Shown one piece after another: positions 16,701 to 61,440 of a DNA stretch of 64,000 nucleotides. A program made the position numbers and the translations under genes. A model generated the notes under the pieces. That model saw only the letters and a program-made list of their open reading frames with translations. It did not search any database and had not been told where the DNA came from. Numbering within the stretch: position 1 is the stretch's first letter; each line of letters opens with the position of its first letter. Source of the stretch: Heptranchias perlo (Eukaryota); assembly GCF_035084215.1 (NCBI RefSeq), contig NC_090349.1:26660001-26724000 (forward strand). The letters are read 5' to 3'.

Positions 16701-18463
16701 ATTTCTAAAGATAGTATATGAAAACTTTTGATATAAAACTGTTTTGCAAGTGAATCTTGGGACCTCACTGTGCGCAAAGTGATTTTTCCTTTGTTGTTCT
16801 GAGAACTCAATATAGTAAAGTGAACAAAATTAAATAGAAAAAAATACATGAAACAATTTTAGCATTACCACCTGAAATGAGTCCCTCCTACTTTTTGTTG
16901 CCTTGTAGCATTATCCTCATTGGAAATCCCATAGGGATGGAGAGAGAGTAAATGATGTAAAGTCAGAAGGTTGTGGATTCAAATCCCACTCCAGAGACTT
17001 GAGCACAAAATCCAAGCTGACAATCCAGTGCAATACTGAAGGAATGCTGCACTGTTGGAGGTACGGTCTTTCGGATGAGACATTAAACTGAGGCCCCATC
17101 TGCCCTCTGAGATGAACATAAAAGATCCCACGGCACTATTTGGAAGAAGAGCATGGATGAGAGTTCTCTCCGGTGTCCTGGCCAATGTTTATCCCTCAAC
17201 CACATTGCTGTCTGTGGGACCTCACTGTGCGCAAATTGGCTGCTGCGTTTCCTACAACAGTGACTATATTTCAAAAGTACTTAATTGGCTGTAAAGCGCT
17301 TTGGGACATCCTGAGGTTATGAAAGGCGCTATATAAATGCAAGTTCTTTCTTTCTTTAAAAAGCATTAAGTGTTTAACAAGTGAAGCAAGCAAGATTTTG
17401 AACATGCTATTTTTCTGGTCTTGGATGCGCTTGAACATGCAAACATGTACAAATACAAACCTTCGCTGTCAGACGAAGTCGTAACCCCTTCCCCCACTGG
17501 GGAAAAGTTCCACCACAAACAGGGGGAAAATCATCCACATAGCATTTGCCCATCGGAGCGAGTGGTGTTCAACCTCAACTTAAAGACACGAAAAATACCA
17601 AGCAGCTGGGCCTTCTTCCTGCAGTCTGACAGAGGAGATCCATACCGTACACTCTACTGAGGGAAGGGCATACTAGCCAAGGGGGAAGATGGGAATACAT
17701 TCTCCAGGCGTCACAACAACCACCGAAAGCCACCACTCTCCTAAGAAAGCTAGGGTAGCAACAGAGCATCTCTGTCCAGCTACCACCCCTCCCTACATGA
17801 CACGTGATATCAAGAAATGGCTGAGTGCACTGGATACAGCAAAGGCTTTTTGGGCCCCAATATCCCAGCTGTAGTGCTGAAGACTTGTGCTCCAGAACTA
17901 GCTGCGCCTCTAGCCAAGCTGTTCCAGTACAGCTACAACACTGGCATCTACCAGACAATGTGGAAAATTGCCCAGGTATGCCCTGTCCACAAAAAGCAGG
18001 ACAAATCCAATCCGGCCAATTACCGCCCCATCAGTCTACTCAATCATTAGCAAAGTGATGGAAGGTGTCGTTGACAGTGCTATCAAGCGGCACTTACTCA
18101 CCAATAACCTGCTCACTGATGCTCAGTTTGGGTTCCGCCAGGACCACTCGGCTCCAGACTCATTACAGCCTTGGTCCAAACATGGACAAAAGAGCTGAAT
18201 TCCAGAGGTGAGGTGAGAATGACTGCCCTTGACATCATACCTAGCACAAAGGAAGATGGTAGTGGTTGTTGGAGGCCAATTATCTCAGCCCCAGGGCATT
18301 GCTGCAGGAGTTCTTCATTTATCCCTCAACCAACACCACCAAAACTGATTATTTGGCGGTTTATCTCATTGCTATTTGTGGGACCTTGATGTTCGCAAAT
18401 TGGCTGCTGTTTCCCCCCCACATTACAACAGTGACTACACTTTAAGGCTGTGAGGAGCATATG

Positions 18464-21500: not shown

Positions 21501-24500
21501 AGTTTTCAGCTCAGTAAATGAAGAACACATAAGTAGGCAAGTAGTGCACACTGGCATAGTTTAGCCTGCAGAAGTGACTTTGACCCAAAGAACAGACTTG
21601 TGTGCAAACTATTAGGGTACAGGAGACATTTTTGTTCATCTAACTTCAATGCTTTTATTAAAACTCATAACATACCCCAAATGTAAAAAGGATTTTTATG
21701 CATTTCATATTAGCAGTCGAACAATACTCAGCAAAACAAAAAAAAACAGGCTCTCATCCATTTTAAGATTATGAAGGGGACTGACAAAACAGGCATTTAG
21801 TTTTTAAAAAAATCAGGAAATTAAAAAGTAATTAAGGAACTCAGGCAGATTTTTTTTGCATCAGACTTGTGAAATAAGTCACATGGGAAGGTAATTAAGG
21901 AAAAGCATAAATGGGTTGAAGAGGCAACTAGCTAAGTTTTGGAAAAGGAAAAAGGATCGAGGGATATGGTGGTAAAATGGGGTTACTGGTATATCAATTC
22001 TTGTTACAGGGTAATGTGAAATGGCTTTCTATTAAATATTATTCACTTATCAGCAACTCCAGTGATATTCTAAGAGAATTTTCTATTCCAGAAATTGTTT
22101 TATTACATTCCAGTAGATCTTTGTAAGAGTTTACCATCACAAAGAAATTTTGTTTGCAATGACAAAATGTCACTACATTACCAGTTTTATGCAGAATATA
22201 CATACACAATGTACCATGTTCAAGGTCTGTACACTTATGCTGGAAAGTCAAATTACTAAACCACTTGTTTTGTTTATGTTTTCAAAAGAACATTTAAAAT
22301 GGTGATCAAGAGAGTCCAGGAGAAATAAAAAGCAAGAACAAGCTAGCCAGTAATGATATGTCATGGATGAATAAAGAAGTAAAGACAAAATTGAAACTAA
22401 AGAAAAAGCAAACATTGAGTACATAGACAACAAAGGAGAGAATGATAAAAGTGAATACAAAAAGATTAGGAAAGAAGTTTAAAAAAAACAATTAGGAAGG
22501 CAAAGAGAAACTATGAAATTAAAATTATCAAGGAATATAAAAAGAGTGAAGTATTCTACAGGCACATAAATAACAAAAGAAAAATAAGGATAGGGATGGG
22601 ACCACTAAGGGATACACACCATAAACTCACAGGTACAGCAAAATGGCAGAAATATTAAATAATTACTTTGCCTCAGTATTTAACAAGGTGGGCATGACAT
22701 TAGAAGAAGCGATCAAAAAATATATAAAGACATTTAAGATAGAAAGGGGGGGGGGGGGGGGGGGGAGGTAGATAATTGATAAACTAATCAAACCTAGAGA
22801 GGATAAAAGCCCTGGTCCGGATGGACTGCATCCGCACATATTAAAATAAGTTAGGGAGGAGATAGCAGAGGCACTATTATATATATATATATATAAAAAA
22901 ATTCTTTAGAAAAGGGAATAGTGCCAGAGGACTGGCGGACAGCTAATTTGATTCCTATATTTAAAAAGAGACACAGAACCAGTCCAGGGAAATTATAGAC
23001 CAATTAGCTTAACGTCAGTAGTAGGAAAGATAATGGGATCTTTACTCAAAGATGTAATAGAAAAACATCTAGAAACCAAAAATATAATAAAGCACGAATT
23101 TCAAAAGGGAAAGTCATGCTTGACCAGCCTTACTGAATTCTTTGAAAAAGTAACAGAAAGGGTAGACAAGGGTAATGCAGTAGATATAATAAATCTGGAT
23201 TTTCAAAAGGCCTTCCATAAGGTATCGCATAGTAGACTTATGACTAAGGTCAGAGCATGTGGAGTCAGGGGACAGGTAGCAGAATGGATAACAAGCTGGC
23301 TACAAAACAGAAAACAAAGAGTAGGGGTTAAGGGTACTCAAACTGGCAAAAGGTGGGAAGTGGTGTTCCACAAGGATCGGTGCTGGGACCACTATTGTTC
23401 ACTATTTCCATAAACGATTTGGACTCGGGAATCGGAGTATAATTTCAAAATTTGCAGACGACACCAAATTGGGGGGTATAATTAATACCGAGGACGACTG
23501 TGACAAAATACAGGAAGACATTAATAAACTTACAGAATGGGCATGTAGTTGGCTAATCAATTTCAATATAGATGTGTGAGGTCTTACATTTTGGTCGGAA
23601 GAATAAGAGGGCCACATACTATTTGGATAACAAGAGTCTAAATGGGGTAAAGGAGCAGAGGGATCTGGGGGTACAGATACGCAAATCACTAAAAGTAGCG
23701 ACACAAGTTAATAGGACAATAAAAAAAAGCAAACCAGCAGTGGGGTTCATTTCTAGAGGGATAGAATTGAAAAGCAGAGAAATTATGTAAACTTGCAAAG
23801 AACCTCAGTTAGATCACACTTGGAATACTGTGAACAGTTCTGGTGTCCATATTATAAAAAGAATATAGAGGCACTGGAGAAGGTGCAAAAAAGATTTAAT
23901 AGGATGATACCAGAAATGAGAGAATATACTTATCAGGAAAGGCTGAACAGGCCGGGGCTCTTTTCTCTAGAAAAGAGAAGGCTGAGGGATGACCCGATAG
24001 AGGTCTTTAAGATCATGAAAGAATTTGATAGGGTAGACATAGAGAAGACGTTTCCACTTGCGGGAAAGACCAGAACTAGGGGCCATAAATATAAGATAGT
24101 CACTAATAAATCCAATAGGGAATTCAGGAGAAACTTCTTTACCCAGAGAGTGGTTAGAATGTGGAACTCGCTACCACAAGGAGTACTTGAGGCGAATAGC
24201 ATAGATGCATTTAAGGGGAAGCTAGATAAACACATGAGGGGGAAAGGAATAAAAGGGTATGCTGAAAGGGTTAGATGAAGTAGGGAGGGAGGAGGTTCAT
24301 GTGGAGCATAAACACCGGTATGGACCTGTTGGGCCAAATGGCCTGTTTCTGTGCTGTGCATTCTATGTAACAGGTTAAACAATGAACTGCAAAGTCATAA
24401 GTCAACCCACCTGCCAAGACAGGATAGTCAAAGTATTCTGCAGCAGGGTCAAGGTTCACCACCTGCACAGATCGATTCAACACCTCACAGTGCTGCTGCA

Positions 24501-30070: not shown

Positions 30071-30597
30071 TATACATGACTTTGTAAAACTATTTCATGT
30101 AATACCTTGATATTAAATGCTATTCTCATTAATATTTTGAATGTGATATTCATAAAGAGCAAAAAAAATTAAATGATAATTATCATTGTCTATTAATATT
30201 ATTGCTGTGCTATTCATTGAGAAATTCAAAATGTTGTTCTTAAGTGTCATTCTGTGTTTACTAAGAGCAGTACATTTTGGTTGTCAAAGCAACAATGTAT
30301 CCAACAGGTGCCTCTTGTGGTTAGGCTGAATTAATTTGTTACACTAACAGCATCTTGTGAATTAATTTAAGCAAGGCTGTCAAAAGAATAATCTTTGCAA
30401 AATCTGGCAGAGCATCTGCTAGTATCATGCTTAAATAAATCAATGGTGCTGCAGTTATAGTATGAATACAGCCAGAACCCGGAGTCAAAACCTGACATGA
30501 CACCGGAGTGAAATGGAATAGAACTCACTGGAGTCTCTCTCTGCCTCCCCTTGGATTCAGTTCGGGCCTTAAAATCTGATTACAGTACATGAGTACT

Positions 30598-30724
30598 TTC
30601 ACCACATGGACTGCAGCGGTTCAAGAAGACAGCTCACCACCACCTTCTCAAAGGCAATTAGGGAGGGGCAATAAATGCTGGCCTTGCCAACGACGCCCTC
30701 ATCCCATGAATTGAACAAAAAAAA
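30598..30724 (+). mobile_element. 3' tail fragment of the same LINE family
   Basis: CCACATGGACTGCAGCGGTTCAAGAAG...CATCCCATGAA followed by an A-tail. Confidence 0.88.
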
Positions 30725-33031: not shown

Positions 33032-36000
33032 GTAAGAAGAACACTTATAATTTATGATGCTTTCATTCTCCTCTCCTGGCTCTGAGCTGCGAGGAGTTCT
33101 GCCAAGATAGACAAGGGCAAGGAATCAAACGTTAGTTGTTGCCCATTTGCAGTACACATCTACGAATTAAGCTTTTGGGAGACTATTGGTGCCTTATGTA
33201 CTTTTTTTTCTTTTCACAAGATTTCCTTGAATTTTAATTTTATTTCTGTGACCCAATTATTTTTGTATTCAAGAGGAATTATGCTGAAATTCCCTCCACC
33301 TCCACAATCTTGAAGTTTCTTAAAAGAAAAAACACGAAATGTTTCATGTTGACTAACTTTATGTTATTCTGGTTGCATTTTGCACCTGTTGCTTCAATTT
33401 TGCCGTACTCTTTCGTCAGTTCTCATTCCCGTAGCATCTTTTCTGTCATTATATCTGTTTGGCAATAGTTACTGGAATCCCTGTAACTATATTAATTTCT
33501 TTATATTTAGACATGGGTCCTGCATGTTATTTGCTATTGACCTCTTTTGCATGGCATAGATTTTAAAGGGATGTAAAAGGCGTTTCATTATTTTAAAAGG
33601 GAAATCAGTTTACACTTTCTTAAATGGCTGATTATATTTTAATGTGTTTGGCTTGCTTTTGCCTTCTATACTAAGTGAAAAGGATAATGTTTATCCTTGA
33701 TAATGATTCTCACCCATAGGAGATGGAGCCTCCCTCTTCCCCTCGGCCACTGAGACTATTTACAATTAAAAAGAAAGGATACTGGCGGCGGCGGGGGGGA
33801 GGGACATTAAAATGGATAATGATGTTTACTGTTGCTGCAGTAATGCAAATGAAGTTATCAGCTGCTGTTGTCCACTGTCATTGTCAAGGCTTCTCTCATT
33901 TCTTCAAATGCCTCATCAACATCATTAAATTAGGATTTGAGGAGAAAATATATCTTTTTATTTGAAGACCTGTTTTGGAGTGGAGTTATTCCCAGACTAG
34001 TAAATCGGACACCACACAACTTTTTAAAAACCTTCCATCCATTTTCTGGCGTCACATTAGTTTTCACGTTCAAACATTCATTTTTAATCCAAGTATTTTG
34101 GCGGGTCATTCAGCACAATGGAGTTTGAATTCTAAAGCACCTCTTTCTAGTTTAATCGTTGGCTCATTTTTGTAAGTTTAAATCTTGCCTCAGTTTTGTA
34201 TCTGGATTGTAATTTTCATGCATTCATTTGATTTTATTTCTTGTTCTGCTTTAGAACTTGTAGCAGCCTATTTCCACAAATATTCTTTCATTATCATGTC
34301 AAAGATAATAGATAACTAAAGTAAATTACATGGGTAACTAATTAATCAAGAGATAATTTCATATATAAGAATAGAAAGCTAGAGAGTGTTTGCTTATCAT
34401 CAGAACCTCAAGATTTAACTTCTGTGAAAGGAAAATGTTTTCACTTTATGCACCCTGTATTAACATTAAGCACTTTCAAGTAAGGTATAGATGGATGTAA
34501 AGCCCCTTTTGCTCTGCTCCAACAATGTGCAAACAATTTTACAACACCAAGTTATAGTCCAGCAATTTTATTTTAAATTCACAAGCTTTTGGAGATTTTC
34601 TCCTTCCTCAGGCAAATGTTTCAAGATCTCCTTGAAGCCTACGCATTTATACATATTGAACAATAATACATGGTGTTTACAGACTGCCCCTGCAACTGCC
34701 CGTTGCCAAGGCAATCACCGTGTTCAGACAGAGAGGTGTTACCTGCAGAACCTCCGAATACACATTCAACAAAAAAACAAACAGGGAAAAAAAACAGAGA
34801 AAAAAAAACACAGAGAGAGGCAGAAACATCCGGAAGGCAGAGAGAGCCAGCAAATGACCCATTATATTAAAAACAATGTGCCTTAACCCTAACATCAGAA
34901 ACGCACTAAACTGTCCTGTACTAGTATTTTTTTAAATTTCCCATTCCACTCATCTTTGTGTCCTCTCTGAGCAAGTATGTCAACTTATTGCCAATTTTGC
35001 GCCGAATTATGGATAGTTTTATGTTGTGGACCACTCCCCAGTAATAACTGAGTGAGACTACCTGAACTCAATTTACCAGGATCCAGGGATGAACTGGCCA
35101 TATGGGAAATGAGGAGAGTTCCTGAGTGCCCCATGAATGGTTCCATAATGCAGTGTTATCGGTGCCCCTTTTTTTCTGTGAGAATCCCAAAGAATCCCAT
35201 TCCCTGTAGGGGAAGTCAGTCACCCCTGCCAGGATCCCAACAAAATGAGGAGACACTCATTCTAACAGTCTGGGATGCATTCAAATATCAGTCCCATAAA
35301 AGAATGGGCAATATTCCTTATTTTTTTATAACAGTAGTCATTCATTCATGAATCGGAAAGGTAAATTTCCATAAGATAAACCATGGCAGTAGGACAAAGG
35401 GGTTCAGATTTTTTTTATTCATTCATGGGATGTGAGCGTCGCTGGTAAGGCCGGCATTTATTGCCCATTCCTAATTGCCCTTGAGAAGGTGGTGGTGAGC
35501 CACCTTCTTGAACCGCTGCAGTCCGTGTGGTGAAGGTTCTCCCACAGTGCTGTTAGGTAGGGAGTTCCAGGATTTTGACCCAGCGACGATGAAGGAATGG
35601 CGATATATTTCCAAGTCGGGATGGTGTGTGACTTGGAGGGGAATGTGCAGGTGGTGTTGTTCCCATGTACCTGCTGCCCTTGTCCTTCTAGGTGGTAGAG
35701 GTCGTGGGTTTGGGGGGTGCTGTCGAAGAAGCCTTGGCGAGTTGCTGCAGTGCATCCTGTAGATGGTACACACTGCAGCCACAGTGCGCCAATGGTGAAG
35801 GGAGTGAATGATTAGGGTGGTTGATGGGGTGCCAATCAAATGGTTGCTTTGTCCTGGATGGTGTCGAGCTCCTTGAGTGTTGTTAGAGCTGCACTCATCC
35901 AGGCGAGTGGAGAGTATTCCATCACACTCCTGCCTTGTGCCTTGTAGATGTTGGAAAGGCTTTGGGGAGTCAGGAGGTGACTCATTCACTGCAGAATACC

Positions 36001-39000
36001 CAGCCTCTGACCTGCTCTTGTAGCCACAGCATTTATGTGGCTGGTCCAGTGGATGTTTCAAACTGGTGAAAGGCAAATTTACAACTCATCAGGAAGTTCT
36101 TCTTTGCTTCAGAGTGACTAACACATACAATGGACTTCTGGTTAGATTAATGGAAGCAAGTACCTTGGAATCATTTAATGAACAGCTGAATGCTGTGATG
36201 GGAGACTGTAAGTTTGTTCTGGATGGAGGAGCTAGGATGGATCAAATGACCTTCCTAATCAGTATCATGTGATCTTGTGGTAATTGATGGAAGAGGAAAA
36301 AACTTTAGAAAGGATTAACATGCTCTTCAATTTCCACACTTGAGTAAGTTCACAGTGACAGAATCCTGCAAGGAGAGCAGCTGTACCCAATTAGTCAGGA
36401 AATTGTGAGGACCTAATAAAGGGGAAGAGAATTTTAAAATTGGCAGAGAAAAAAATTGACTTCCATAAAATGATCAGCTTTGTTCTGCTGAATGATACAG
36501 AATTGATTTATCAAGCATAAGGCCTCAGTTTAAACTGGTACCAGTGCCCTATTTTTATTTTCCCATTGGTGCCATTTTCTTTCAATGGGATGTACACATC
36601 GAATTTTTCAATGTAATGAATTTATAAGCAGCACATGATAAAATGAATACTGTCTTTTTAAAATGTATTATTGAAATTTCAAGAGTTTACATTCACATTT
36701 TTCATGAAACCACTGTACATTTGCTTACATGTAATAGTATCTTCTTCATGTATTATTCTTTTTAGGACATTAGGACACCATTTTCCAAAAAGACATGATT
36801 CAACTGGTAAGGAGAAGCTTCTGCTTTTCGAGTTTCTTGGATGCATCTCGGTAATTTAATAATGTATGAAGGTGATTCAATTACCTTTTTAAGAGCTGAC
36901 TCACTTCGTGGGTGAGGCAAGTAAGACCTGGCAGGAATATTGATATTGTGTTTAATTTTTCTGTTTTAGCTGTTTTGTTTCATATTCATGTCAAGTTTGG
37001 AATTTATGTATACTTTGTATGTCACGTAAAAGAGCCATTAATTTGCTATTTAATCAAGCTTAAACTATTGCATGTGTACAATGCCAGTTGTACTTCAATA
37101 TTGATGAATTTTAAGAATATAATAGAATTATGGTGGATACATCGCATAGGATTTTGCTAATGTTTGGAATCTCATACATTTAACAGTGTAGCTTGAATTA
37201 TACATAAATATACACTAACAGTGTGTGAGGCCGTATTAAATGGTCATTTGGCTTGTCGACGATGAAGGACCAAACCGAATGTCTACTGAGAAGAGCAAAA
37301 GATTGAAAAAATAGAGCAAAGCGAATCTGATTGATAAAATGTTCAAATGGTAGAAAATGACAGTTGTGAAATATGGCCATGCGCCACAGAATTCCATTGG
37401 CTTCATCAAAAATCAGCTAAAATCAATACAATGTCTCACACAAGTTTTACGTGGAAAGGGGTAGTGCAAATGTTTTAATGAAAACACTGAAGGAAAATAT
37501 TACTGCAGACTGGACAACAGGGAGGACTACAGTTAGTTGTTTACCAAGATTCCTTACCCTTGCATTAGGTGGGGAATAGATTGCAGTCTCTTTCTTCATG
37601 AGAGAACTGAAGAACTGGAGATAAGACTGGCAAGCATTGGTGAAGGGGAGGATTTGGGATAAGAGCAGAAGCCATTCTGTTACCATGTTCATATTTGTGC
37701 AATATAATTATTATGTCCTTATATTTTCTGTTATGAGGACAAACCAATTACATGGCTTATATAATACATGAAACAAAAAGGCAAACACCTCACTTATATA
37801 CTTGTCAATATCCTGTAGCATCGCATACAGGGAGTCGAAACCAAGTGTAGTCTTCAGGTGAAGTGGGATCAAAGTCATTCAGTCCTTATTTTTATATTTC
37901 CATTATAAACTCATATGTCCACATTTAAATAGGAAACTGTCCATGTAAACATTTCACACTGTAATTACACCCACTTGCCAGTGGTGCTGCAGACCTACAC
38001 GAACATAAGAATTTGTAATAGAAAAAGGTGACAGCAAATGTGTGCAGATGTAAGATTTTAAAAATATTATAGATATGCGGTAATTCTGCTTAGTGTGTTG
38101 TAATGTGCTAGATAAGAATCAGCTATTAATTGAGCAACATACAACAGTTCATGAAATGCCAATCATCATGATTCACAATTTTGTTGCAGATGCTCTGGAA
38201 ACATTCCAAAAGATGATCAGCAGAAAAGTTATTTTACCAATTCCTTCCCCATTTGATACTGAAGGTACTGTACAGACAGCAATCCCAGAATGTTCCAACC
38301 AACAATCACAGGGTGAGAGGAGCCAAAGGAAGAACATAAACTGGTGGCAACCTCTACCTCAGACCATTGTCTGATTCAGAAAGAACCTCCAAAGCAGCAG
38401 GAGTTGGGGATTGGAGCTACCAAACAGGGAACCGAGCAAGATAATACATTGGCTGAGTGCAAAGTAGGGGTAGGAGGAAGAAAGGAATGAAAAACTCAAA
38501 GAACAGACAGATGCTGACCTTCCGGCCAATTTGGTAACGTTACAGACAGATGGATTGAACCAGATGGGGGAAATGAAAAAGAACTGCCAGTCTAGACTAG
38601 ATGGGATGCAAGTCAGTTTCCAGACTGGGGTAAATCTGCTTCAAAGTGTGATCAAGTCTAGTAACAGTCAGATTGAATCAGCAGTGGGGCAGGTGAGTTC
38701 CACTGTGAGCTCAGTCGAGACTACTCCACAGAACATGGGTTCCAGCCTAGCCACAATTAACTCCAACCTGTTACAACCTCAAGAAACTGTTGAATCTGGT
38801 TTCAAAGAGCTCACCAAGGAAATTGGTTCTCTGGTTAGATGGCTGTACCAGAACCTGAGTGCTATACCTGTAGAGAATCAGCCAATCAAAGCCTTCATCA
38901 GGACTGCCTAGGTCCTATGTAGATAGTAGGACCCACTAAATGGCCTAGATTTTAACCCAGAAAAACAAGTGGGTTGGGGGTGGGGGGCCAGTAAAAATGT

Positions 39001-42000
39001 TAAGAATGCAAAACCCGACTCCAACCCGCCCACTTCCAGTTTTAACGGAGGCGGGACGAGTGGCGGGCGACCAATCCACTCTCAGGAGGAGGGTTGATCA
39101 CTGAAAGCTTTCAAGGAGGCTGTGGGCCTCCATTTTTACAGCTGTTTTTTAGCTGAGATTCCCGGGCCTTCTACTTCACGTGAGAGGAGTCGAGACGTTC
39201 CGAAAAAGCAGGTAGGTGCCTTTATTGCACTGCTTGTGGGCCTAGAGGAGCAGGAGTGCTTCCGCCAGGCCTAACAAGCCTACCTGCAGCAACCGCCCCC
39301 TCCCCCACAACATCTCCGAAACCCCCCACCCGGGATCTCCGAACCACCCCCCGCTGCCCCCCCGACCGCGCACTCCGACCCCCCCCACCGCGCACTCCGA
39401 CCCCCCCCACCGTGCACTCCGACCCCCCCCCCCCACCGTGCACTCCGACCCCCCCCCACCGCGCTCTCCGACCCCCCCCCACCGCGCTCTCCGACCCCCC
39501 CCCCACCGCGCTCTCCGACCCCCCCCCCACCGCGCTCTCCGACCCCCCCCCCACCGCGCTCTCCGACCCCCCCCCCCACCGCGCTCTCCGACCCCCCCCC
39601 CACCGCGCTCTCTGACCCCCCCCCACCGCGCTCTCTGACCCCCCCCCACCACGCTCTCCGACCCCCCCCCACCACGCTCTCCGACCCCCCCCCCCACCAC
39701 GCTCTCCGACCCCCCCCCCCACCACGCTCTCCGACCCCCCCCCCCACCACGCTCTCCGACCCCCCCCCACCACGCTCTCCGACCCCCCCCCACCACGCTC
39801 TCCGACCCCCGCCCCCCCACCACGCTCTCCGACCCCCCCCCCCACCACGCTCTCCGACCCCCCCCCCCCACCACGCTCTCCGACCCCCCCCCCCACCACG
39901 CTCTCCGACCCCCCCCCCGCACCACGCTCTCCGACCCCCCCCCCACCACCACGCTCTCCGACCCCCCCCCCACCACCACGCTCTCCGACCCCCCCCCCAC
40001 CACCACGCTCTCCGACCCCCCCCCCACCACCACGCTCTCCGACCCCCCCCCCCACCACCACGCTCTCCGACCCCCCCCCCCACCACCACGCTCTCCGACC
40101 CCCCCCCCCACCACCACGCTCTCCGACCCCCCCCCACCACCACGCTCTCCGACCCCCCCCCCCACCACCACGCTCTCCGACCCCCCCCCCCCACCACCAC
40201 GCTCTCCGACCCCCCCCCACCACCACGCTCTCCGACCCCCCCCCCCACCACCACGCTCTCCGACCCCCCCCCCCACCACCACGCTCTCCGACCCCCCCCC
40301 CCACCACCACGCTCTCCGACCCCCCCCCCCACCACCACGCTCTCCGACCCCCCCCCACCACCACGCTCTCCGACCCCCCCCCCCACCACCACGCTCTCCG
40401 ACCCCCCCCCCACCACCACGCTCTCCGACCCCCCCCCCCACCACCACGCTCTCCGACCCCCCCCCCCCACCACCACGCTCTCCGACCCCCCCCCCCACCA
40501 CCACGCTCTCCGACCCCCCCCCCCACCACCACGCTCTCCGACCCCCCCCCCCACCACCACGCTCTCCGACCCCCCCCCCCACCACCACGCTCTCCGACCC
40601 CCCCCCCCACCACCACGCTCTCCGACCCCCCCCCCCACCACCACGCTCTCCGACCCCCCCCCCCACCACCACGCTCTCCGACCCCCCCCCCCACCACCAC
40701 GCTCTCCGACCCCCCCCCCCACCACCACGCTCTCCGACCCCCCCCACCACCACCACGCTCTCCGACCCCCCCCCCACCACCACGCTCTCCGACCCCCCCC
40801 CCCACCACGCTCTCCGACCCCCCCCCCCCACCACCACGCTCTCCGACCCCCCCCCCCCACCACCACGCTCTCCGACCCCCCCCCCACCACCACGCTCTCC
40901 GACCCCCCCCCCCACCACCACGCTCTCCGACCCCCCCCCCCACCACCACGCTCTCCGACCCCCCCCCCCACCACCACGCTCTCCGACCCCCCCCCCCACC
41001 ACCACGCTCTCCGACCCCCCCCCCCCACCACCACGCTCTCCGACCCCCCCCCCCCACCACCACGCTCTCCGACCCCCCCCCCCCACCACCACGCTCTCCG
41101 ACCCCCCCCCCCCCACCACCACGCTCTCCGACCCCCCCCCCCACCACCACGCTCTCCGACCCCCCCCCCCCACCACCACGCTCTCCGACCCCCCCCCCCC
41201 ACCACCACGCTCTCCGACCCCCCCCCCACCACCACGCTCTCCGACCCCCCCCCCCCACCACCACGCTCTCCGACCCCCCCCCCACCACCACGCTCTCCGA
41301 CCCCCCCCCCCCACCACCACGCTCTCCGACCCCCCCCCCCCACCACCACGCTCTCCGACCCCCCCCCCCCACCACCACGCTCTCCGACCCCCCCCCCCCA
41401 CCACCACGCTCTCCGACCCCCCACCCCCACCACGCTCTCCGACGACCCCCCCCCACCACGCCTTCCCAGCTCTGTGATAAAATTTAGGCCAGTGCTTATG
41501 CCCCAAGAAGAATATGACTAACAGGGACTCTACTAGTCAAGAAGCACCTTTTATCTTGGTTTAGTGGCACAAGCTCATTATGGGACCGTTAACAACAAAT
41601 GACCAACAAGACAGTTCATTTAGGTGCCTGGATAATAAACCTTGCTGTTTGTTGCATGTCACAACATATGTCTCTTTTTATGGGCCAAACTCCAGGTTCT
41701 GTTCCCTAATTTAGTATGGGATGTCAGGCAACAACAGTTGTCATTTATATGTTGCTACCTCGGAAGGTGGGAACGTTAGTATATTCTTGCTTGGCCTGGA
41801 AGTTCAATCTTTTACAAGTTGCTCAGATGTTCTGAGGTGGAAAAATTAAGTGGGTGGGAAATTTAAAAAAAATTTAAAATGGGAATTTTGTGCTCATCAA
41901 ACTAAAGGATGGTTAGTGTTGGGAAATTGAATACTTTTCATTTAGCATTTTCAGATTAGATATTTCACAGTTAAATGCAGATCAAAGATCACTCCACTCC

Positions 42001-43302: not shown

Positions 43303-46300
43303 ACTCAAAGTAGAAAAGTCACCCGATCCAGATGGATGCATACTAGGTTACTGAGGGAAGTAAAGATGGAAATTGTGGAGGCTCTGGCCATAATCTTCCA
43401 ATTGTCCTTAGATATGGGGGTGGTGCCGGAGGACTGGATGATTGCAAATGTTACACCCTGTTCATTAAAGGGGAGAGAGATAAACCCGGCAATTACAGGT
43501 CAGTTAGCCTAATGTTGGTGGTGGGGGAACTTTTAGACAATAATCCGGGACAAAATTAATTGGCACTTGGAAAAGTATGGGCTAATAAATGAAAGTCAAC
43601 ATGGATTTATTAAATGAAAACCTAACTTGATTGAGTTATTTGATGAAGTAACAGGGAGGGTTGATGAGGGTAGTGCGGTTGATGATATGTATATGGACTT
43701 TCAAAAGGCATTTGATAAAGTACCACATAATAGACTTGTAAGCAAAATTAAAGCCTTGGGATGAAAGAAACAGTGGTAGCATGGATACAAAATTGGCTCG
43801 GACCAAAAGCAGAGACTAGTGGTGTTCCCCAGGGGATATTAGGACCTTTGCTCTTTTTGATATATATTAATAACCTGGACATGAGTACAGAGGGTATAAT
43901 TTCAAAGAGCACAGATAACATAAAACTTGGAGATGTAGTAAACAATGTGGAGGATAGTAACAGACTTCAGGAGGACAGACTGGTGAAATGGGCAGACACA
44001 TGGCAGATGAAATTTAATGGAGAGAAGTGTGAAGTGATACATTTTGGTAGGAAGAATGAGGAGAGGCAATATAAACTAAATGGTACAATTTTAAAGGGAG
44101 TACAGGAACAGAGAGACCTGGGGATGTATGTACACAAATCTTTGAAGGTGGCAGGACAAGTTGAGAAGGCTGCTTGAAAAGCATATGGGATCCTGGGCTT
44201 TATTAATAGACGCATAGAGTACAAAAGAAAGGAAGTTTTGCTAAACCTTTGTAAAACACTGGTTAGGCCTTAGCTGGAGTATTTTGTTCAATTCTGGGCA
44301 CCATACTTTAGAAAGGATGTCAAGGCCCTATAGAGAGAGTGCAGAAGAGAGTTACTAGAATGGTACCAAGGATAAGGGACTTTAGTAATGCGGAGAGACT
44401 GGTGAAGCTGGGGTTGTTTTCCTTAGAGCAGTGTAGGTTAAGAGGAGATTTGATAGAGGTGTTCAAAATCATGAATGGTCTTGTTAGAGTAAATAAAGAG
44501 AAACTGTTTCTAGTGGCAGAAGGGTCGGTAACCAGAGGACACAGATTTAAAGTGATCGACAAAAGAACTAGAGACGAAATGAGGAAACATTTTTTTATGG
44601 AGTGAGTTATGATGATCGGGAATGCATTGCCTGAAAGGGTGGAGGAAGCAGATTCAATAGTAACTTTCAAAAGCAAATTGGCTAAATACTTGAAGGGAAA
44701 AAATTTACAGGATTATGGGAAAAGAGCAGGGGAGTGGGACTAATTGGATAGCTCTTTCAAAGAGCCAGCACAGGCACGATGGGCCGAATGGTTTCCTCCT
44801 GCGCTGTACCATACTGCAATACTATGATATATATGTATATCCAAGTTTGTAGATTACACTAAATTAGGAGACATAGTAAGTTGTGTAGATGGGAGCAGGC
44901 TGTTACAAAGAGACACAGACAGATAAAGTGAATGGGCAAAATTATGGCAGATGGAGTTCAAAATGAGGTCTTCCACTTTGGATCTGAGAAAGAAAAATTG
45001 GAATATTTTCTTTAATTGTGAGAAACTAGGAGCTGTGGAGGAGCATAGGGATTTGGGGGTCCATGTACACAAATCACTAAAAGCTAGTGCAGAGGTATAA
45101 AAAGCAATCAAAAAGGCTAATGGAATGTTGGCCTTCATCGCAAGGGCGGGAATACAAAATGAGGAAGTAATGCTCCAGTTATACAGAGCCTTGGTCAGAT
45201 CCCATTTGGAGTACTGCATTCAGTTTTAGGAACTGCTCCTCAGGAAAGATATATTGGTCTTGGAGGGAGTACAACGCAGATTCACCAGAATGATACTGGG
45301 GCTTATAGGGTTAAATTATTCAGACAGGTTACATTAACTTGGTTTGTATTCCCTTGACTTTAGAAGGTTGAGGGATGTGAAAAAGGCATGCCACTATCTT
45401 CTTGGAGAACTAGGGCAGGGCACTAAATGTGGGCTCACCAGTGTCATTCGCATCCTGAGAACAAGTAGCATAAGATAGCATAGCAATTAAGCCTCATGCT
45501 TTATAATGACAGAAGCAGCATTGTAAAGTTTAGAACATATATGAAACACTTTCTTATTGAGTTAGAATCAAGTATGTTTTTCTGTCTAATGTTTCTGCTT
45601 CTGTTCTGTCCTCTAGCCTGTTCACTGATGGAGAAAATAGCTGAAATGAAGGAACAGAAAGCCAGGGAGTATCGAGTCATGCTGCAGCAACTGTCACTTA
45701 GTCCACAGCTGAAAACCATACACATCCCCAGATCAGTGGAGAGCTCACCATTTCTGCAGGTGTCTGCACCACATTCCTACAATATCCTCTTAAAACTAAC
45801 TGATTTAACATTTTTTCAATCCCATTATCCCAGGCATATACTTGAAAGTAGCAGATATTTGGCATTCTGTTCTATAGGATCTAAAATTAGTTTAGAAAAA
45901 TGCTGTTTTCCAATTATACAAGAATGAGTAGTATAGGATGTATGATTGTACAAATATCTCCATCAGATCAGATTACTCATTTAGAAATTCAGGAGAAATA
46001 AATGAAAGTCATGTTAATGAAAGATCTGAGTTTTGCTAACACAATAAGAGCTAGGTATTAAGATTGTGGGGAACGGCCTAGCTTTCGTCCTGCTGGGTCC
46101 TCATGCTGCTGATGGAAGCATTGGTGTTTTTTGCTTGGTACAATGCAGGCAGAAGAGGTGTTATTTTCTTCCCTTTTTAGATCCACCTGCCCCATGTAAA
46201 AGGATAAACAGGCAACCTAATGCCACACCTCTTCACATTTATAGAAAGAAAGACTTGCAGTTATATAACACCTTTCAAAACCTCGAGACGTCCTAAAGCG

Positions 46301-49300
46301 CTTTACAACCAATGAAGTACGTATGAAGTGTAGTCACTGTTGTAATGTAGGAAACGCAGAACCCAATTTGCGCACGGCAAGCTCCCACAAACAGCAATGA
46401 AATAAATGACCATATCATCTATTTTAGGTGTTAGTTAACGGATAAATGTTGGCCAGAACACCGGGAGAACTCCCCTGACGTGGGATCTTTTACATCCACC
46501 TGAGAGAGTAGATGGGGCCTTGGTTTAACATCTCACCTGAAAGACATTATACTTTATAACGATTACTAGAAAGTGTGTGAAAGAACTTAGGATGACCACA
46601 CACTAAATTTACCTGCCCGCGGAAAGTCCCCTCAACTCCACTTGGTGTCTTTTCCAGCGTCTCAGTCATACTTGGGAATTCATTGTGTAGGGCATTAACT
46701 CACATGTTACTATTGGTATATCAACCAGCTCTATCACTGAGTGTCAGTGATTTCATATAGGACAAGTTAACAGTTTTGATTGGGCAGTCTGTGGGCAAAA
46801 CTAGGGAAAATTAAAGCACATTCCAGCAAATATTTCCTGGGAAGCACTGGCAGAGCATTGGGTATGGCATTTCCTCACCTTTTCCAGCTGGACAATGGTG
46901 TATGCTGCAGGGAATGGGTTGGGAAAAAATATATAATAAATTGTTGTGGAAAATTTGGGATTTTACAAAAGCAGTATATGTTTAAAACAATAAACTACTT
47001 TTATTTTCTATATGAGTAGGTTGTGGTGGAAAAGGTGATGTTTCTACTTTATGGCATCATTGCTTCATTTTCCCTACTGTGTACATTGTGGGTTTTTTAC
47101 TGACCAATGTTCTCTCTTTTTCTGAAAGTATTGGCTCCTTGTTAGGGCACAGTTGCTTGGTCACTGGTCACCTTCAGCCAAGTGACGATATTAATTTTTG
47201 GACAGTGACTGTCAGCAGGCTGTTTGATCATGGGAAGCATCTCAGTCAACCTTAATCCTGTCCTTGCCCAACATCTACTCACATGCTCACTTCTAGCACG
47301 GGTCACTAGATAACAGTGGCAGAACTGTGGCTGATTTTCCCCCCTCTCTCTCCCAACCCTGGGTCACTGAGGTCAATTGTACCACCCCTACCATTGTCCT
47401 GGCTGAGATCAGCTAACCCAACACATCAGGAATCAAAACTAGAATCTTGTTGATCTGAATGGTTCAGCCACTCACTGGATAAACTCAGTGAGCCATTAGT
47501 AGGATCCTTAATTTACACGGTTAGCAATGCTATTAGTCCTATGGGAAATACAGACTTCAGTGCTTACAAAACAAATGCATTTAAACTCAGTTCATTTAAC
47601 TTTTTTTTATTCGTTCATGGGATGTGGGCGTCGCTGGCGAGGCTGGCATTTATTGCCCATCCCTAATTGCCCTTGAGAAGGTGGTGGTGAGCCGCCTTCT
47701 TGAACCGCTGCAGTCCGTGTGGTGACGGTTCTCCCACAGTGCTGTTAGGAAGGGAGTTCCAGGATTTTGAACCAGCGACGATGAAGGAACGGCGATATAT
47801 TTCCAAGTTGGGATGGTGTGTGACTTGGAGGGGAACGTGCAGGTGTTGTTCCCATGTGCCTGCTGCCCTTGTCCTTCTAGGTGGTAGAGGTTGCGGGTTT
47901 GGGAGGTGCTGTCGAAGAAGCTTTGGCGAGTTGCTGCAGTGCATCCTGTGGATGGTACACACTGCAGCCACTGTGCGCCAGTGGTGAAGGGAGTGAATGT
48001 TTAGGGTGGTGGATGGGGTGCCAATCAAGTGGGCTGCTTTGTCCTGGATGGTGTTGAGCTTCTTGAGTGTTGTTGGAGCTGCACTCATCCAAGCAAGTGG
48101 AGAGTATTCCATCACACTCCTGACTTGTGCCTTGTAGATGGTGGAAAGGCTTTGGGGAGTCAGGAGGTGAGTCATTCACTGCAGAATACCCAGCCTCTGA
48201 CCTGCTCTCGTAGCCACAGTATTTATATGGCTGGTGCAGTTAAGTTTCTGGTCAATGGTGACCCCCAGGATGTTGATGGTGGGGGATTCGGTGATGGTAA
48301 TGCCATTGAATGTCTAGGGGAGGTGGTTAGACTCTCTCTCGTTGGAGATGGTCATTGCCTGGCACTTATCTGGCGCGAATGTTACTTGCCACTTATCAGC
48401 CCAAGCCTGGATGTTTTGCTGCATGCGGGCTCGGACTGCTTCATTATTTGAAGGGTTGCGAATGGAACCGAACACTGTGCAATCATCAGCGAACATGCCC
48501 GTTTATGACCTTATGATGGAGGGAAGGTCATTGATGACGATGGTTGGGCCTAGGACACTGCCCTGAGGAACTCCTGCAGCAATGTCCTGGGGCTGAGATG
48601 ATTGGCCTCCAACAACCACTACCATCTTCCTTTGTGCTAGGTATGACTCCAGCCACTGGAGAGTTTTCCCCCTGATTCCCATTGACTTCAATTTTACTAG
48701 GGCTCCTTGGTGCCACACTCGGTCAATTGCTGCCTTGATGTCAAAGGCAGTCACTCTCACCTCACCTCTGGAATTCAGCTCTTTTGTTCATGTTTGGACC
48801 AAGGCTGTAATGAGGTCTGGAGCTGAGTGGTCCTGGCGGAACCCAAACTGAGCATCGGTGAGCAGGTTATTGGTGAGTAAGTGCCGCTTGTTAGCACTGT
48901 CGACGACACCTTCTATCACTTTGCTGATGATTGAGAGTAGACTGTTGGGGCGGTAATTGGCCGGATTGGATTTGTCCTGCTTTTTGTGGACAGGACATAC
49001 CTGGGCAATTTTCCACATTGTCGGGTAGATGCCAGTGTTGTCGCTGTACTGGAACAGCTTGGCTAGAGGCGCAGCTAGTTCTGGAGCACAAGTCTTCAGC
49101 ATTACAGCTGGGGTGTTGTCGGGGCCCATAGCCTTTGCTGTATCCAGTGCACTCAGCGGTTTCTTGATATCACGTGGAGTGAATCGAATTGGCTGAAGAC
49201 TGGCTTCTTTGATGGTGGGGATATCGGGAGGAGGCCGAGATGGATCATCCACTCGGCACTTCTGGCTGAAGATGGTTGCAAACGCTTCAGACTTGTCTTT

Positions 49301-52300
49301 TGCACTCACGTGCTGGACTCCGCCATCATTGAGGATGGGGATGTTGGCAGAGTCTCCTCCTCCCGTTAGTTGTTTAATTGTCCACCACCATTCACGACTG
49401 GATGTGGCAGGACTGCAGAGCTTTGATCTGATCCGTTGGTTGTGGAATCGCTTAGCTCTGTCTATAGCATGTTGCTTCCGCTGTTTAGCATGCATGTAGT
49501 CCTGAGTTGTAGTTGGCACCTCATTTTTGGGTATGCCTGGTGCTGCTCCTGGCATGCTCTTCTACACTCCTCATTGAACCAAGGTTGATCCCCTGGCTTG
49601 TTGGTAGAGTGAGGAATATGCCGGGCCATGAGGTTACAGATTGTGCTGGAATACAATTCTGCTGCTGCTGGCCCACAGTTCCTCATGGATGCCCAGTTTT
49701 GAGCTGCTAGATCTGTTCTGAATCTATCCCATTTAGCACGGTGGTAGTGCCACACAACACGTTGGATGGTGTCCTCAGTGCGAGGACGGGACTTCATCTC
49801 CACGAGGACTGTGCGATGGTCACTCCTACCAATACTGTCATGGACAGATGCATTTGCGACAGGTAGATTGGTGAGGACGAGGTCAAATAAGTTTTTCCCC
49901 CGTGTTGGTTTGCTCACCACCTGCCGCAGGCCCAGTCTAGCAGCTAATGTCCTTCAGGACTCGACCAGATCGGTCAGTAGTTTAGTGGTGCTACCGAGCC
50001 ACTCTTGGTGATGGACATTGAAGTCCCCCACCCAGAGTACATTCTGTGCCCTTGCTACCCTCAGTGCTTCCTCCAAGTGGTGCTCAACATGGAGGAGGAC
50101 TGATACATCAGCTGAGGAACAGTAGGTGGTAATCAGCAGGAAGTTTCCTTGCCCATGTTTGACCTGATGCCATGAGATTTCATGGGGTCCAGAGTCAATG
50201 TTGAGGACTCCCAGGGCCACTCCCTCCTGACTGTATATCACTGTACCGCCACCTCTGGTGGGTCTGTCCTGCCGGTGGGACAGGACATACCCAGGGATGG
50301 TGATGGAAGAGTCTGGGACGTTGGCTGAAAGGTATGATTCTGTGAGTATGGCTATGTCAGGCTGTTGCTTGACGAGTCTGTGGGACAGCTCTCCCAATTT
50401 CGGCACAGGTCCCCAGATGTTAGTGAGGAGGACTTTGCAGGGTCGACTGGGCTTGGTTTGCCGTTGTCGTGTCCGGTACCTAGTGGTCCGTCCAGTTTTA
50501 TTCTTATTATGACTTTTCGTAGCAAGATTTTACAACTGAGTGGCTTGTTAGGCCATTTCAGAGGGCAATTAAGAATCAACCACATTGCTGTGGGTCTGGA
50601 GTCACATATAGGCCAGACCGGGTAAGGACGGCAGGTTTCTTTTCCTAAAGGGCATTAGTGAACCAGATGGGTTTTTACAACAACCCGGTAGTTTCATGGC
50701 CATCATTACTGATACTAGTATTTTAATTCCAGATTTTTATTTAATTAATTGAATTTAAATTCACCAGCTGCCATAGCAGGATTTGAACTCATGACCCCGG
50801 ATTTTTAGTCCAGGCCTCTGGATTACTAGTCCGGTTACATAACCACTATGCTACTGTACCCAGGTTTCTGATTTGAAGCACAGTATTTCAGTTTCAACCA
50901 AGCTAGTCTAAAATAATAAAATTATTTTTAAAAGGTTACAAAGATCCAAAAAAAGTAGAATTGGCAGATGTGAAACATAAAACTCCAAACCTTCTTACTT
51001 TTGTGCAACAATAGTTTCTCTCCTTTATCAACAGCTGCCTCTTTTTCTGTTCTATTAGTCCATTAAAAAAACAAAGACTGTCAGTTTCTGCAGTGGCTGA
51101 CTGCTTATAACTTGTGAAGACCATGTACTGCAATGCAGTGGATACCTAATTAGAAAACAGAAACGTATTCCTAGAAAAGACAGAGGAAAATCTGAAGGAC
51201 CTGGGAGTAGAGGAAGCTGGAGTATAAGAAACACTGCTTTTCAGTTTTTTGGCATTATTAACTTTCTAAGCTTGCAGAATGACTTCATCCATTCTAATGA
51301 GCTTACTTTTAACACGAGTAACTCCACTAGCCTAGCAACCCATTCAATGCTATGTCTGTGAAAGTGCCAATCTTCAGCATTCTTGGTAAACAAAATAGAT
51401 TGCATGGCCTGTGCCAAGTAGCCTTGATGTATTCAGATTGATTTGGGCAACATTTTCTAAATCCAGTGACTATTGATGGTCTTTTGTGTAAATTCCATAT
51501 GTTCTCATATTATGTGCGTTCTTTTAAAATATACTGCAAGTTATAAAAGAAACAGTTAATGTCCTACAATTTTATCGGCTAACGGATATGTGTTGTTCAA
51601 TACTTTTAAAATTATTTGTGGGTGCTTTCAGAACAGCACAACAGCTCCGGTGAAGTCAAATGGTTGCACTATTTTCACAAATTCATATTTATGTTGAAAG
51701 TGTCAGTCTTGGCTCAGTGGTAACACTTGCGTCTCAGAGTCAGAAGTGTAGGGTAACTTTAGTTTTATTAAGTTTCACACAAGGTTCAGCAATACGTGCG
51801 CTTAAGCAGTAGTCAACAGTGCAGAACAACAGCTATATCACCCGTCCTGCATCAGGTAGAGGTCGTGCCTACTTTGTACAGGAGTCTTGATAGTCACCCT
51901 GCCTGGGGTCTCTTCCATTGATACCGTTGTAGGCTCTTGGCCTTGCCCCACCCGGGGTTTCCTCTTATCCCGCCTGAGGTTTCCCCTCTTCCTGTCCCTT
52001 AATCGTGACAAGGTTCCCTTTGTACTTCTCCGACTCGTAGGCCGCTGACCTTTATGGATCCGGATCCTCTTCACCTCAGGGATGCCTGGTTTCACTCCAG
52101 GGTTAACCTATACTCCCGTCTATGTTCTCTGCAACCTGACCCTTGTACAGGGTGTCTTGTTTATGCCACTGTTGAGGGTGGTTACATGGGCTATTATAGA
52201 CACAGGTGTTTGACCCTATGGGGGTCTTTCCAAAAGGCATGGTGGCCAATTGGGTATCGAGTATCTTCCAGACAAAGGAAGAGGAGTCGGCTTACTCCTG

Positions 52301-60439: not shown

Positions 60440-61440
60440 CAATAACAACCTGCAGTTATACAGCGCGTTTAACATAGTAAAACGACCCAAGATGCTTCAC
60501 AGGAGCGATTTTCAAACAAAATTTGACACCGAGCGACATAAGGAGATATTAGGACAGGTGACCAAAGCTTGGTCAAAGAGGTAGGTTTTAAGGAATGTCT
60601 TAAAAAGGAGAGAGAGGCAGAGAGGTTTAGGGAAGTAATTTTAGAGCTTGGGGCCTAGGCAGCTGAAGGCACAGCCGCCAACGGTGGAGTGATTAAAATC
60701 GGGGATGTGCAAGAGGCAAAAATCGAAGGAGCGCAGAGATCTTGGGAGGGTTGTAGGGCTGGAGGAGGTTAGAAAGGGAGGGAGAAGGCCATGGAGGAAT
60801 TTGAAAACAAGGATGAGAATTTTAAAATCAAGGTGTTCCCGGACCAGGAGCCAATGTAAGTCAGCAAGCACAGGGGTGATGGGTGACCGGCACTTGTGCG
60901 AGTTAGGATATGGGCAGCAGAGTTTTGGATGAGCTCAAGTTTATGGAGGGTGGAAGCTGGGAGGCCAGCCAGGAGAGTATTGGAATAGTCAAGTCTAGAG
61001 GTAACAAAGGCATGGATGAGGGCTTCAGCAGCAGAGGAACTGAGGCAGGGACAGAGATGCGCAATGTTAAGGAGGTGGAAGTAGGCAGTCTTGGCGATAG
61101 AGCGGATATATGGTCGGAAGCTCATCTCAGGGTCAAATAGGGCACCAAGGTTGCGAACGGTCTGGTTCAGCCTTAGACAGCGGCCAGGGAGAGAGATGGA
61201 GTCGGTGGCTAGGGAACGGAGTTTGCGGCTGGGACTAAAGACAATGATCTTCCCAATATTTAGTTAGAGGATATTTTTGCTCATCCAGTACTGGATGTCG
61301 GAAAAGCAGCGTGACAAATGAGAGTAAGCGGAGCAGTCGAGAGAAGTGGTGGTGAGGTAGAGCTGGGAGTAGTCAGTGTACATGTGGAATCTGATGTGTT
61401 TTTGGGTGATGTCGCCAAGGGGCAGCATGTAGATGAGAGT
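60440..61440 (-). mobile_element. L2 LINE 3' portion
   Basis: LIHAFVTSRLDYSN, LHWL and ILILVFK motifs typical of L2 ORF2 C-terminus; short-repeat tail near 60440. Confidence 0.9.

Follow-up and report, generated by a model that had tools for sequence, protein, structure and literature searches.

A 64,000-nt stretch of the Heptranchias perlo genome (contig NC_090349.1; hereafter the window, to which all coordinates refer) carries on its minus strand, at 47601-50861, a dead full-length copy of Zenon, a long interspersed nuclear element (LINE) of the CR1 group found in sharks and rays. The family, which has already been published in the form of Zenon consensus sequences, is autonomous and young. 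Its members start with a head of tRNA origin and a conserved leader, followed by a single coding frame poor in runs of T. Judged by sequence, transcription by RNA polymerase III (Pol III) is probably the best single explanation for the intact promoter boxes, the position of the start and the family-specific depletion of T runs. We put forward only tentatively the wider proposal that Zenon may be an autonomous coding retrotransposon, transcribed over 3.3 kb from end to end by Pol III and translated without cap or AUG by means of a tRNA-mimicking leader, that occurs across sharks and rays and sheds short interspersed nuclear elements (SINEs) by internal deletion.

The division between LINEs and SINEs rests on the assignment of coding elements to RNA polymerase II (Pol II) and of short non-coding ones to Pol III. 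If the proposal is correct, a natural 3.3-kb coding Pol III unit breaks this rule, and the element shows, in a vertebrate, how translation of RNA without a cap is achieved. A further consequence would be a one-step origin of SINEs, with a conserved SINE body traced to a LINE leader and serving there as the translation leader of the LINE; an earlier paper reports that conserved SINE bodies had not been traced to any LINE (Kojima 2018, PMC5786205). Every step is directly testable because copies with an open frame exist.

Head, leader and ORF amplify as one unit

The 5' end of the element resembles a tRNA, as an earlier note on this DNA had claimed. ARAGORN predicts a tRNA at 50769-50860 (-), the Rfam tRNA model matches the head weakly (18.4 bits, E 0.54), and both the A box and the B box stand where that note had placed them (Table 1). 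About 331 nt lie upstream of a single long open reading frame (ORF) encoding an apurinic/apyrimidinic endonuclease (APE) and a reverse transcriptase (RT). An APE-RT ORF near the 5' end without an ORF1 had been described in the note and was found again here, the frame running from 50529 and the APE domain from ~50421, as was the poly(A) end of the element (A8). A sequence search of the PDB returned L1 ORF2p, R2 and one unnamed RT only. We derived a family majority by taking the commonest base in each alignment column across 44 copies; it is 3,297 nt long and contains a single 967-codon frame, and the copies diverge from it by 2.5% on average. Compared with this majority, the window copy has frameshifts near 49987, 49948 and 49513 and in-frame stops at 48790, 48505, 48316 and 48178, and because of these three frameshifts and four stops it is itself dead. 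No target-site duplication of at least 7 nt was present in the full copies aligned to within 3 bases of the 5' end; eight such copies have flank matches of 5-6 nt, a size expected by chance. Pieces of the same family also occur elsewhere in the window, at 17801-18317 (+; internal), 30591-30724 (+; 3' tail) and 35409-36050 (-; 5'-truncated).

The note had treated the SINE-like head and the LINE ORF as one unit, and the junction between them is indeed not unique to this locus. An exact 24-mer across the leader-ORF junction has 3,786 matches genome-wide (control, 0), and 40 of 40 scored matches to a 291-nt junction query are at 95-100%. Among the non-self loci returned by the junction query, 22 of 29 align back to the first bases of the head and four more to just inside it. 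A query made of head and body alone carries no bias towards the ORF, and with it the match continues into the ORF at 26 of 29 non-self loci, the remaining three being 440-nt short forms. The full length is covered in one alignment at 44 of 60 fetched loci (one pair being a duplicate), a share that is overstated because the loci were chosen by 5' (head or junction) queries; the flanks of these copies are unrelated. The 5' end falls on the same base in 29 and within 4 bases in 37 of the 43 distinct full copies. Exact 23-mers at the 3' end have ~42,000 matches genome-wide, and set against the 3,786 exact matches to the junction this puts the share of copies that extend as far as the leader at very roughly 9%.

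The same arrangement is seen beyond this genome. All seven published elasmobranch consensuses, from five species (CarCar, HypSab, RhiTyp and ScyCan Zenon-1, and SquAca Zenon-1 to -3; Stuart et al. 2026, PMC13343379), begin with head and leader, keep the A box and lack TTTT, as judged by eye over their first 400 nt, and exact leader motifs of 10-14 nt are present in six to seven of the seven. The assignment to Zenon was made by such exact motif look-ups and by-eye comparison of the first 400 nt of the consensuses. The elasmobranch Zenon LINEs share the length of ~3.3 kb, the absence of ORF1, the APE-RT frame and the poly(A) tail and belong to the same family, and a whale shark 'CR1-Zenon like LINE' (10.1101/443036) is grouped with them. 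The three Zenon consensuses of hagfish and coelacanth lack the head and have T runs in their first 400 nt (by eye). In contigs of four other organisms (three studies), loose ends cluster at most 8 bases from the same 5' base in three of four runs, and GCT-AC follows the leader in four of four. Four assembled contig sets, whose kind we guess to be RNA, span the whole element; as contigs they carry no information on start, strand or cap.

Head, leader and APE-RT ORF thus amplify as one unit. The idea that a SINE merely came to lie next to a 5'-truncated LINE here by chance is refuted and has, in our estimate, a negligible probability: SINE-like short forms do occur in the genome, and no other support is left for it against the exact matches to the junction (3,786), the 5' end shared by copies whose flanks are unrelated and the identical join in the published consensuses of five species. 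Two variants stand out among the fetched loci. Four full-length copies (L120, L123, L124 and L130) have all lost the same 20 nt between the A and B boxes of the head. Two other loci (L136 and L137) hold one and the same rearranged copy, identical in its internal deletion and inverted segments, and probably reflect a segmental duplication or a duplication in the assembly.

The ORF is under purifying selection, which bears out the claim that the family mobilises itself. Among non-CpG variants, those shared by at least four copies are 37 synonymous versus 17 non-synonymous, compared with 349 versus 854 for singletons (P 7e-9), although some shared variants are recurrent hot spots and the two classes are therefore not clean. 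An open frame of at least 967 codons is kept in three of 44 copies, and Pfam identifies PF03372, PF14529 and PF00078 (APE and RT) in the intact copy P0001. Three database proteins named after host genes, two of them labelled shark (P0009, P0020 and P0023), contain stretches 78-82% identical to the Zenon ORF; these stretches are either gene-model artefacts or exonised copies.

Depletion of T runs

Pol III terminates at about four T's in vertebrates. For the sense strand, the earlier note had reported no TTTT, about eight TTT and about 19 AAAA; our counts for 47601-50861 are 0, 8 and 20 (tail counted). The majority of 44 copies, the consensus in which TTTT was to be looked for, has no TTTT either, and seven TTT. 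We compared these counts with several null models. In the ORF, five TTT are observed versus 12.1 expected under synonymous shuffling (P 0.003) and 16.4 when third positions are redrawn, where none of 5,000 redraws was as low; no other homopolymer is depleted to this degree. The absence of TTTT has P 0.009 against base shuffles.

Other LINEs do not behave in this way. In the Zenon ORF, the observed/expected ratio of TTT is 0.41, and that of 5-mers containing four or more T's is 0.21. The lowest values among 68 related LINE ORFs are 0.79 and 0.70, and each of these ORFs contains at least three TTTT; they come from those of 80 related LINE loci on metagenome contigs that have an ORF of at least 500 codons, and many of them are interrelated. 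Three CR1-type families of the same genome (24 copies each, T 0.22-0.25; window fragments 43348-44297 (+), 22805-24278 (+) and 8714-9650 (-)) have TTT ratios of 0.99-1.03 and contain 7, 3 and 8 TTTT in 1.5-2.0 kb. The depletion of T runs therefore goes beyond codon use and beyond the control LINEs. The avoidance of T runs proposed in the note stands in part: the depletion of TTT exceeds that of every control LINE tested, and the signal sits in TTT and near-T-runs, whereas a lack of TTTT does not by itself reach significance under codon-preserving nulls. Internal TTTT occurs in 13 of 44 copies, distributed over 10 sites, of which eight are found in a single copy, one in two copies and one in three; no site is common to at least four of the 44 copies, as expected for decay after insertion. 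Three of the four refuting conditions set out in the note were put to the test, and none of them overturned the idea.

A T run also replaces the first A's of the tail in ~11% of exact 3' ends (4,639 ...GAATTTT versus 37,568 ...GAATAAA; for example, L083, L084, L098 and L105). We considered these ends as relics of Pol III termination and rejected this explanation. They likely reflect ordinary mutation of A tracts, because T4A4 outnumbers A4T4 by 29 to 0 in the window at large.

Translation start and transcribing polymerase

The family majority has no in-frame Met until codon 244, which lies beyond the endonuclease, and nine ATGs occur in its leader. We analyzed shared indels along the element. 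Between the in-frame TAA and the APE domain there are two, of 15 nt and 3 nt, both frame-keeping; none of the three shared indels of the 5' untranslated region (UTR) is a multiple of three; and further into the ORF, five of eight shared indel classes keep the frame. Because indels keep the frame upstream of the APE domain but not in the 5' UTR, these data suggest that a basic N-terminal extension is translated from a non-AUG start within ~12 codons of the TAA. It is likely, on this pattern, that translation begins at a non-AUG codon. All five species retain a GCT (50523-50521) although the preceding 6-7 nt vary, and in four of the five it lies in frame with downstream conserved codons (both by eye).

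Just upstream of this GCT a hairpin is predicted, whose anticodon-loop-like loop CUAGCAA contains an AGC complementary to GCU. The 4-nt loop complement is kept in the five species by eye, without covariation, and one leader stem of the RhiTyp consensus shows a two-sided change (by eye). The stem is almost invariant among the 44 copies, and the loop varies at G313A (window 50548; seven of 44) and at position 311 (window 50550; 13 of 44). These loop variants look like recurrent post-insertion changes, since the G313A and T311 variants share no other variant, and they are neutral with respect to the pseudoknot. It is a speculative and somewhat doubtful idea that the loop AGC could pair with the in-frame GCU as a codon-anticodon mimic, in the manner of pseudoknot I of dicistrovirus intergenic region (IGR) internal ribosome entry sites (IRESs), where a hairpin loop is likewise complementary to the codon at a required non-AUG start (PMC3517527). 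Use of IGR-type IRESs by elements without long terminal repeats (non-LTR elements) has been raised as a possibility (PMC3894237). The Zenon leader differs from the dicistrovirus elements in that no triple pseudoknot and no covariation are apparent, and that Rfam scans of the element (E up to 5, up to 1) gave no IRES match, leaving ribosome-binding pseudoknots II and III unsupported.

Under the Pol III proposal, TFIIIC would bind the A and B boxes, and Pol III would initiate at the first G and read 3.3 kb to the first T run of the flank, as happens with Alu. The RNA, which would lack a cap if Pol III made it, would have its translation start among the first codons past the in-frame TAA, and the ORF protein would copy its own RNA by target-primed reverse transcription. 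An unlikely alternative is that Pol II makes the retrotransposition RNA, with head and leader forming an internal promoter that is possibly helped by TFIIIC, the RNA being capped and polyadenylated at the AATAAA, and T poverty having another cause. LINEs are generally Pol II transcripts, and non-LTR elements use this polymerase (Kojima 2024, PMC10886601); an AATAAA and a poly(A) tail are present; the headless Zenons of hagfish, coelacanth and Lepidoptera imply that the lineage was ancestrally transcribed by Pol II; and the absence of TTTT is not significant by itself. Pol II nevertheless leaves unexplained why A and B boxes are intact across sharks and rays, why elements start at the first bases of the tRNA and why T runs are depleted here and not in control LINEs. 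In addition, a G is found directly 5' of the start in just two of 29 copies, yet a cap-derived G could have become fixed as the first base of the family, and a scanning ribosome would meet the nine leader ATGs and no in-frame AUG. We regard as quite improbable a split of roles, in which Pol III makes the template RNA, while read-through transcripts of host genes, capped and made by Pol II, supply the protein, which acts in trans. This scheme accounts for boxes and T avoidance and requires no translation of RNA that lacks a cap, short non-coding forms do move in trans, and 39% of the whale shark CR1-Zenon-like LINE sequence is intronic (10.1101/443036). Against it, purifying selection on the ORF in amplified copies fits a cis preference, the AUG problem persists on any transcript, and long forms stand at 3,786 versus 68 for the one young short junction counted.

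Several results weigh against transcription of Zenon by Pol III and cap-independent translation of its RNA. The AATAAA lies ~45 nt before the end of the element, which fits Pol II polyadenylation, and weak processivity of Pol III is reported to limit such elements to ~1.3 kb or less (Kojima 2024, PMC10886601). The strongest T-run signal is indirect, since TTT is not a canonical Pol III terminator. The lack of TTTT is weak evidence alone (P 0.10-0.12 under codon-preserving nulls and 0.15 under a dinucleotide null), and for TTT of the whole element the dinucleotide null gives P 0.06. The 68 control ORFs are richer in T (0.215-0.36 versus 0.194), and one CR1 control is itself mildly low in TTTT (3 versus 6.3, P 0.026). 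With respect to translation, the frame of SquAca_Zenon-1 is offset by one base from its GCT (by eye), three of ten shared ORF indel classes shift the frame, no covariation of the loop-GCU pair was seen, and the leader body folds no better than shuffles (z -0.34).

Derived SINEs, related elements and other features

One young short-form junction, which connects head and leader to the final 103 nt of the element, has 68 exact matches. A young 440-nt SINE subfamily with one common deletion junction is represented by L058, L059, L077 and L296-L301. Among older copies (70-89% similar to the young majority), short forms with a wide variety of junctions prevail; several retain the GCT together with the last codons of the ORF, and a few continue into the ORF. 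Because the older short forms vary in their junctions and keep pieces of the ORF, short forms have arisen from the LINE repeatedly by internal deletion, and the join of head and ORF is old.

We compared the element with known systems. The SINE2 group, the tRNA-derived SINEs, shares with Zenon a tRNA head with A and B boxes, a conserved body, an A tail and the lack of an internal terminator. SINE2 elements are 100-700 bp long and non-coding; the 440-nt derivatives are SINE2-like in being short and non-coding, in contrast to the full shark Zenon of 3.3 kb with its selected 967-codon ORF. SacSINE1 is a shark tRNA-derived SINE (PMC5499810), and HCD-SINEs in bivalves use CR1-Zenon partners (PMC11481361). 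The nearest precedent is provided by RTE-1_DAn and relatives, reported as LINEs with tRNA-like sequence; they differ in belonging to the RTE clade, and the one sentence devoted to them gives no position, promoter function or polymerase (Kojima 2018, PMC5786205). Persaeus, a derivative of a lepidopteran Zenon, resembles the shark short forms in being internally deleted with 5' and 3' ends retained, but it has no tRNA homology or Pol III promoter, whereas the shark short forms inherit the tRNA head and are SINEs at once (PMC6740152). ARAGORN found no tRNA head among 58 of the 80 metagenome loci of distant LINE relatives, many of whose contigs may lack the 5' end. In the available portions of PMC13343379, 'tRNA' and 'polymerase III' are absent from the main text and 'tRNA' from the supplement, and no mention was found there of the head, T-run depletion, the missing AUG or derived SINEs. 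We found no proposal of a Pol III-transcribed autonomous LINE in the literature, with subscription journals, Repbase and Dfam outside the search.

The note had likened the body to the Meta or MESC domain, a label that is not supported. By eye it has no likeness to the Meta line of EptSINE1 (supplement of PMC7245038), and its motifs have no match in the MetaSINE supplements (all files but one searched). The MESC domain is reported from molluscs only, namely snails and mussels (PMC4758252). A Deu (SacSINE1) label was rejected as well: by eye the body does not resemble the published Deu sequences, and two body motifs have no match there (supplement of PMC7245038, Deu alignment only).

Table 1. 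Positions of Zenon features in the window
Feature	Position	Strand	Remarks
Whole element	47601..50861	-	Full-length decayed Zenon LINE copy, 2.6% from family majority
tRNA-derived head	50769..50861	-	ARAGORN, weak Rfam tRNA; 5' end sharp across copies
A box TAGCATAGTGG	50843..50853	-	Read in sequence; identical in 33/44 copies
B box GAGTTCAAATCC	50779..50790	-	Read in sequence; identical in 34/44 copies
Conserved leader body	50531..50675	-	Near-identical by eye in 7 published elasmobranch consensuses; no Rfam family, no named SINE domain
Predicted hairpin, 7-nt loop	50541..50555	-	Family loop CUAGCAA; window copy G>A at 50548
In-frame TAA	50530..50532	-	5' bound of long ORF
Conserved in-frame GCT	50521..50523	-	Candidate marker of non-AUG start
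Single APE-RT ORF	47663..50529	-	967 codons stop to stop in family; broken in window copy
APE endonuclease domain (approximate)	49807..50421	-	PF03372 and PF14529
Reverse transcriptase domain (approximate)	48254..48982	-	PF00078, E 1e-37 on intact copy P0001
AATAAA hexamer in short 3' UTR	47649..47654	-	
Poly(A) tail (A8)	47601..47608	-	No visible target-site duplication
First TTTT of 3' flank	47568..47571	-	Likely end of a Pol III transcript from the window copy

Two further features of the window lie outside Zenon. A 164-codon frame at 60769-61263 (-) has no Pfam match and presumably resembles the C-terminal part of an L2-type LINE ORF2. At 39401-41459, a G+C-rich tandem array of ~76 copies of a 28-bp unit has stop-free frames of more than 600 codons on both strands and is probably a minisatellite.

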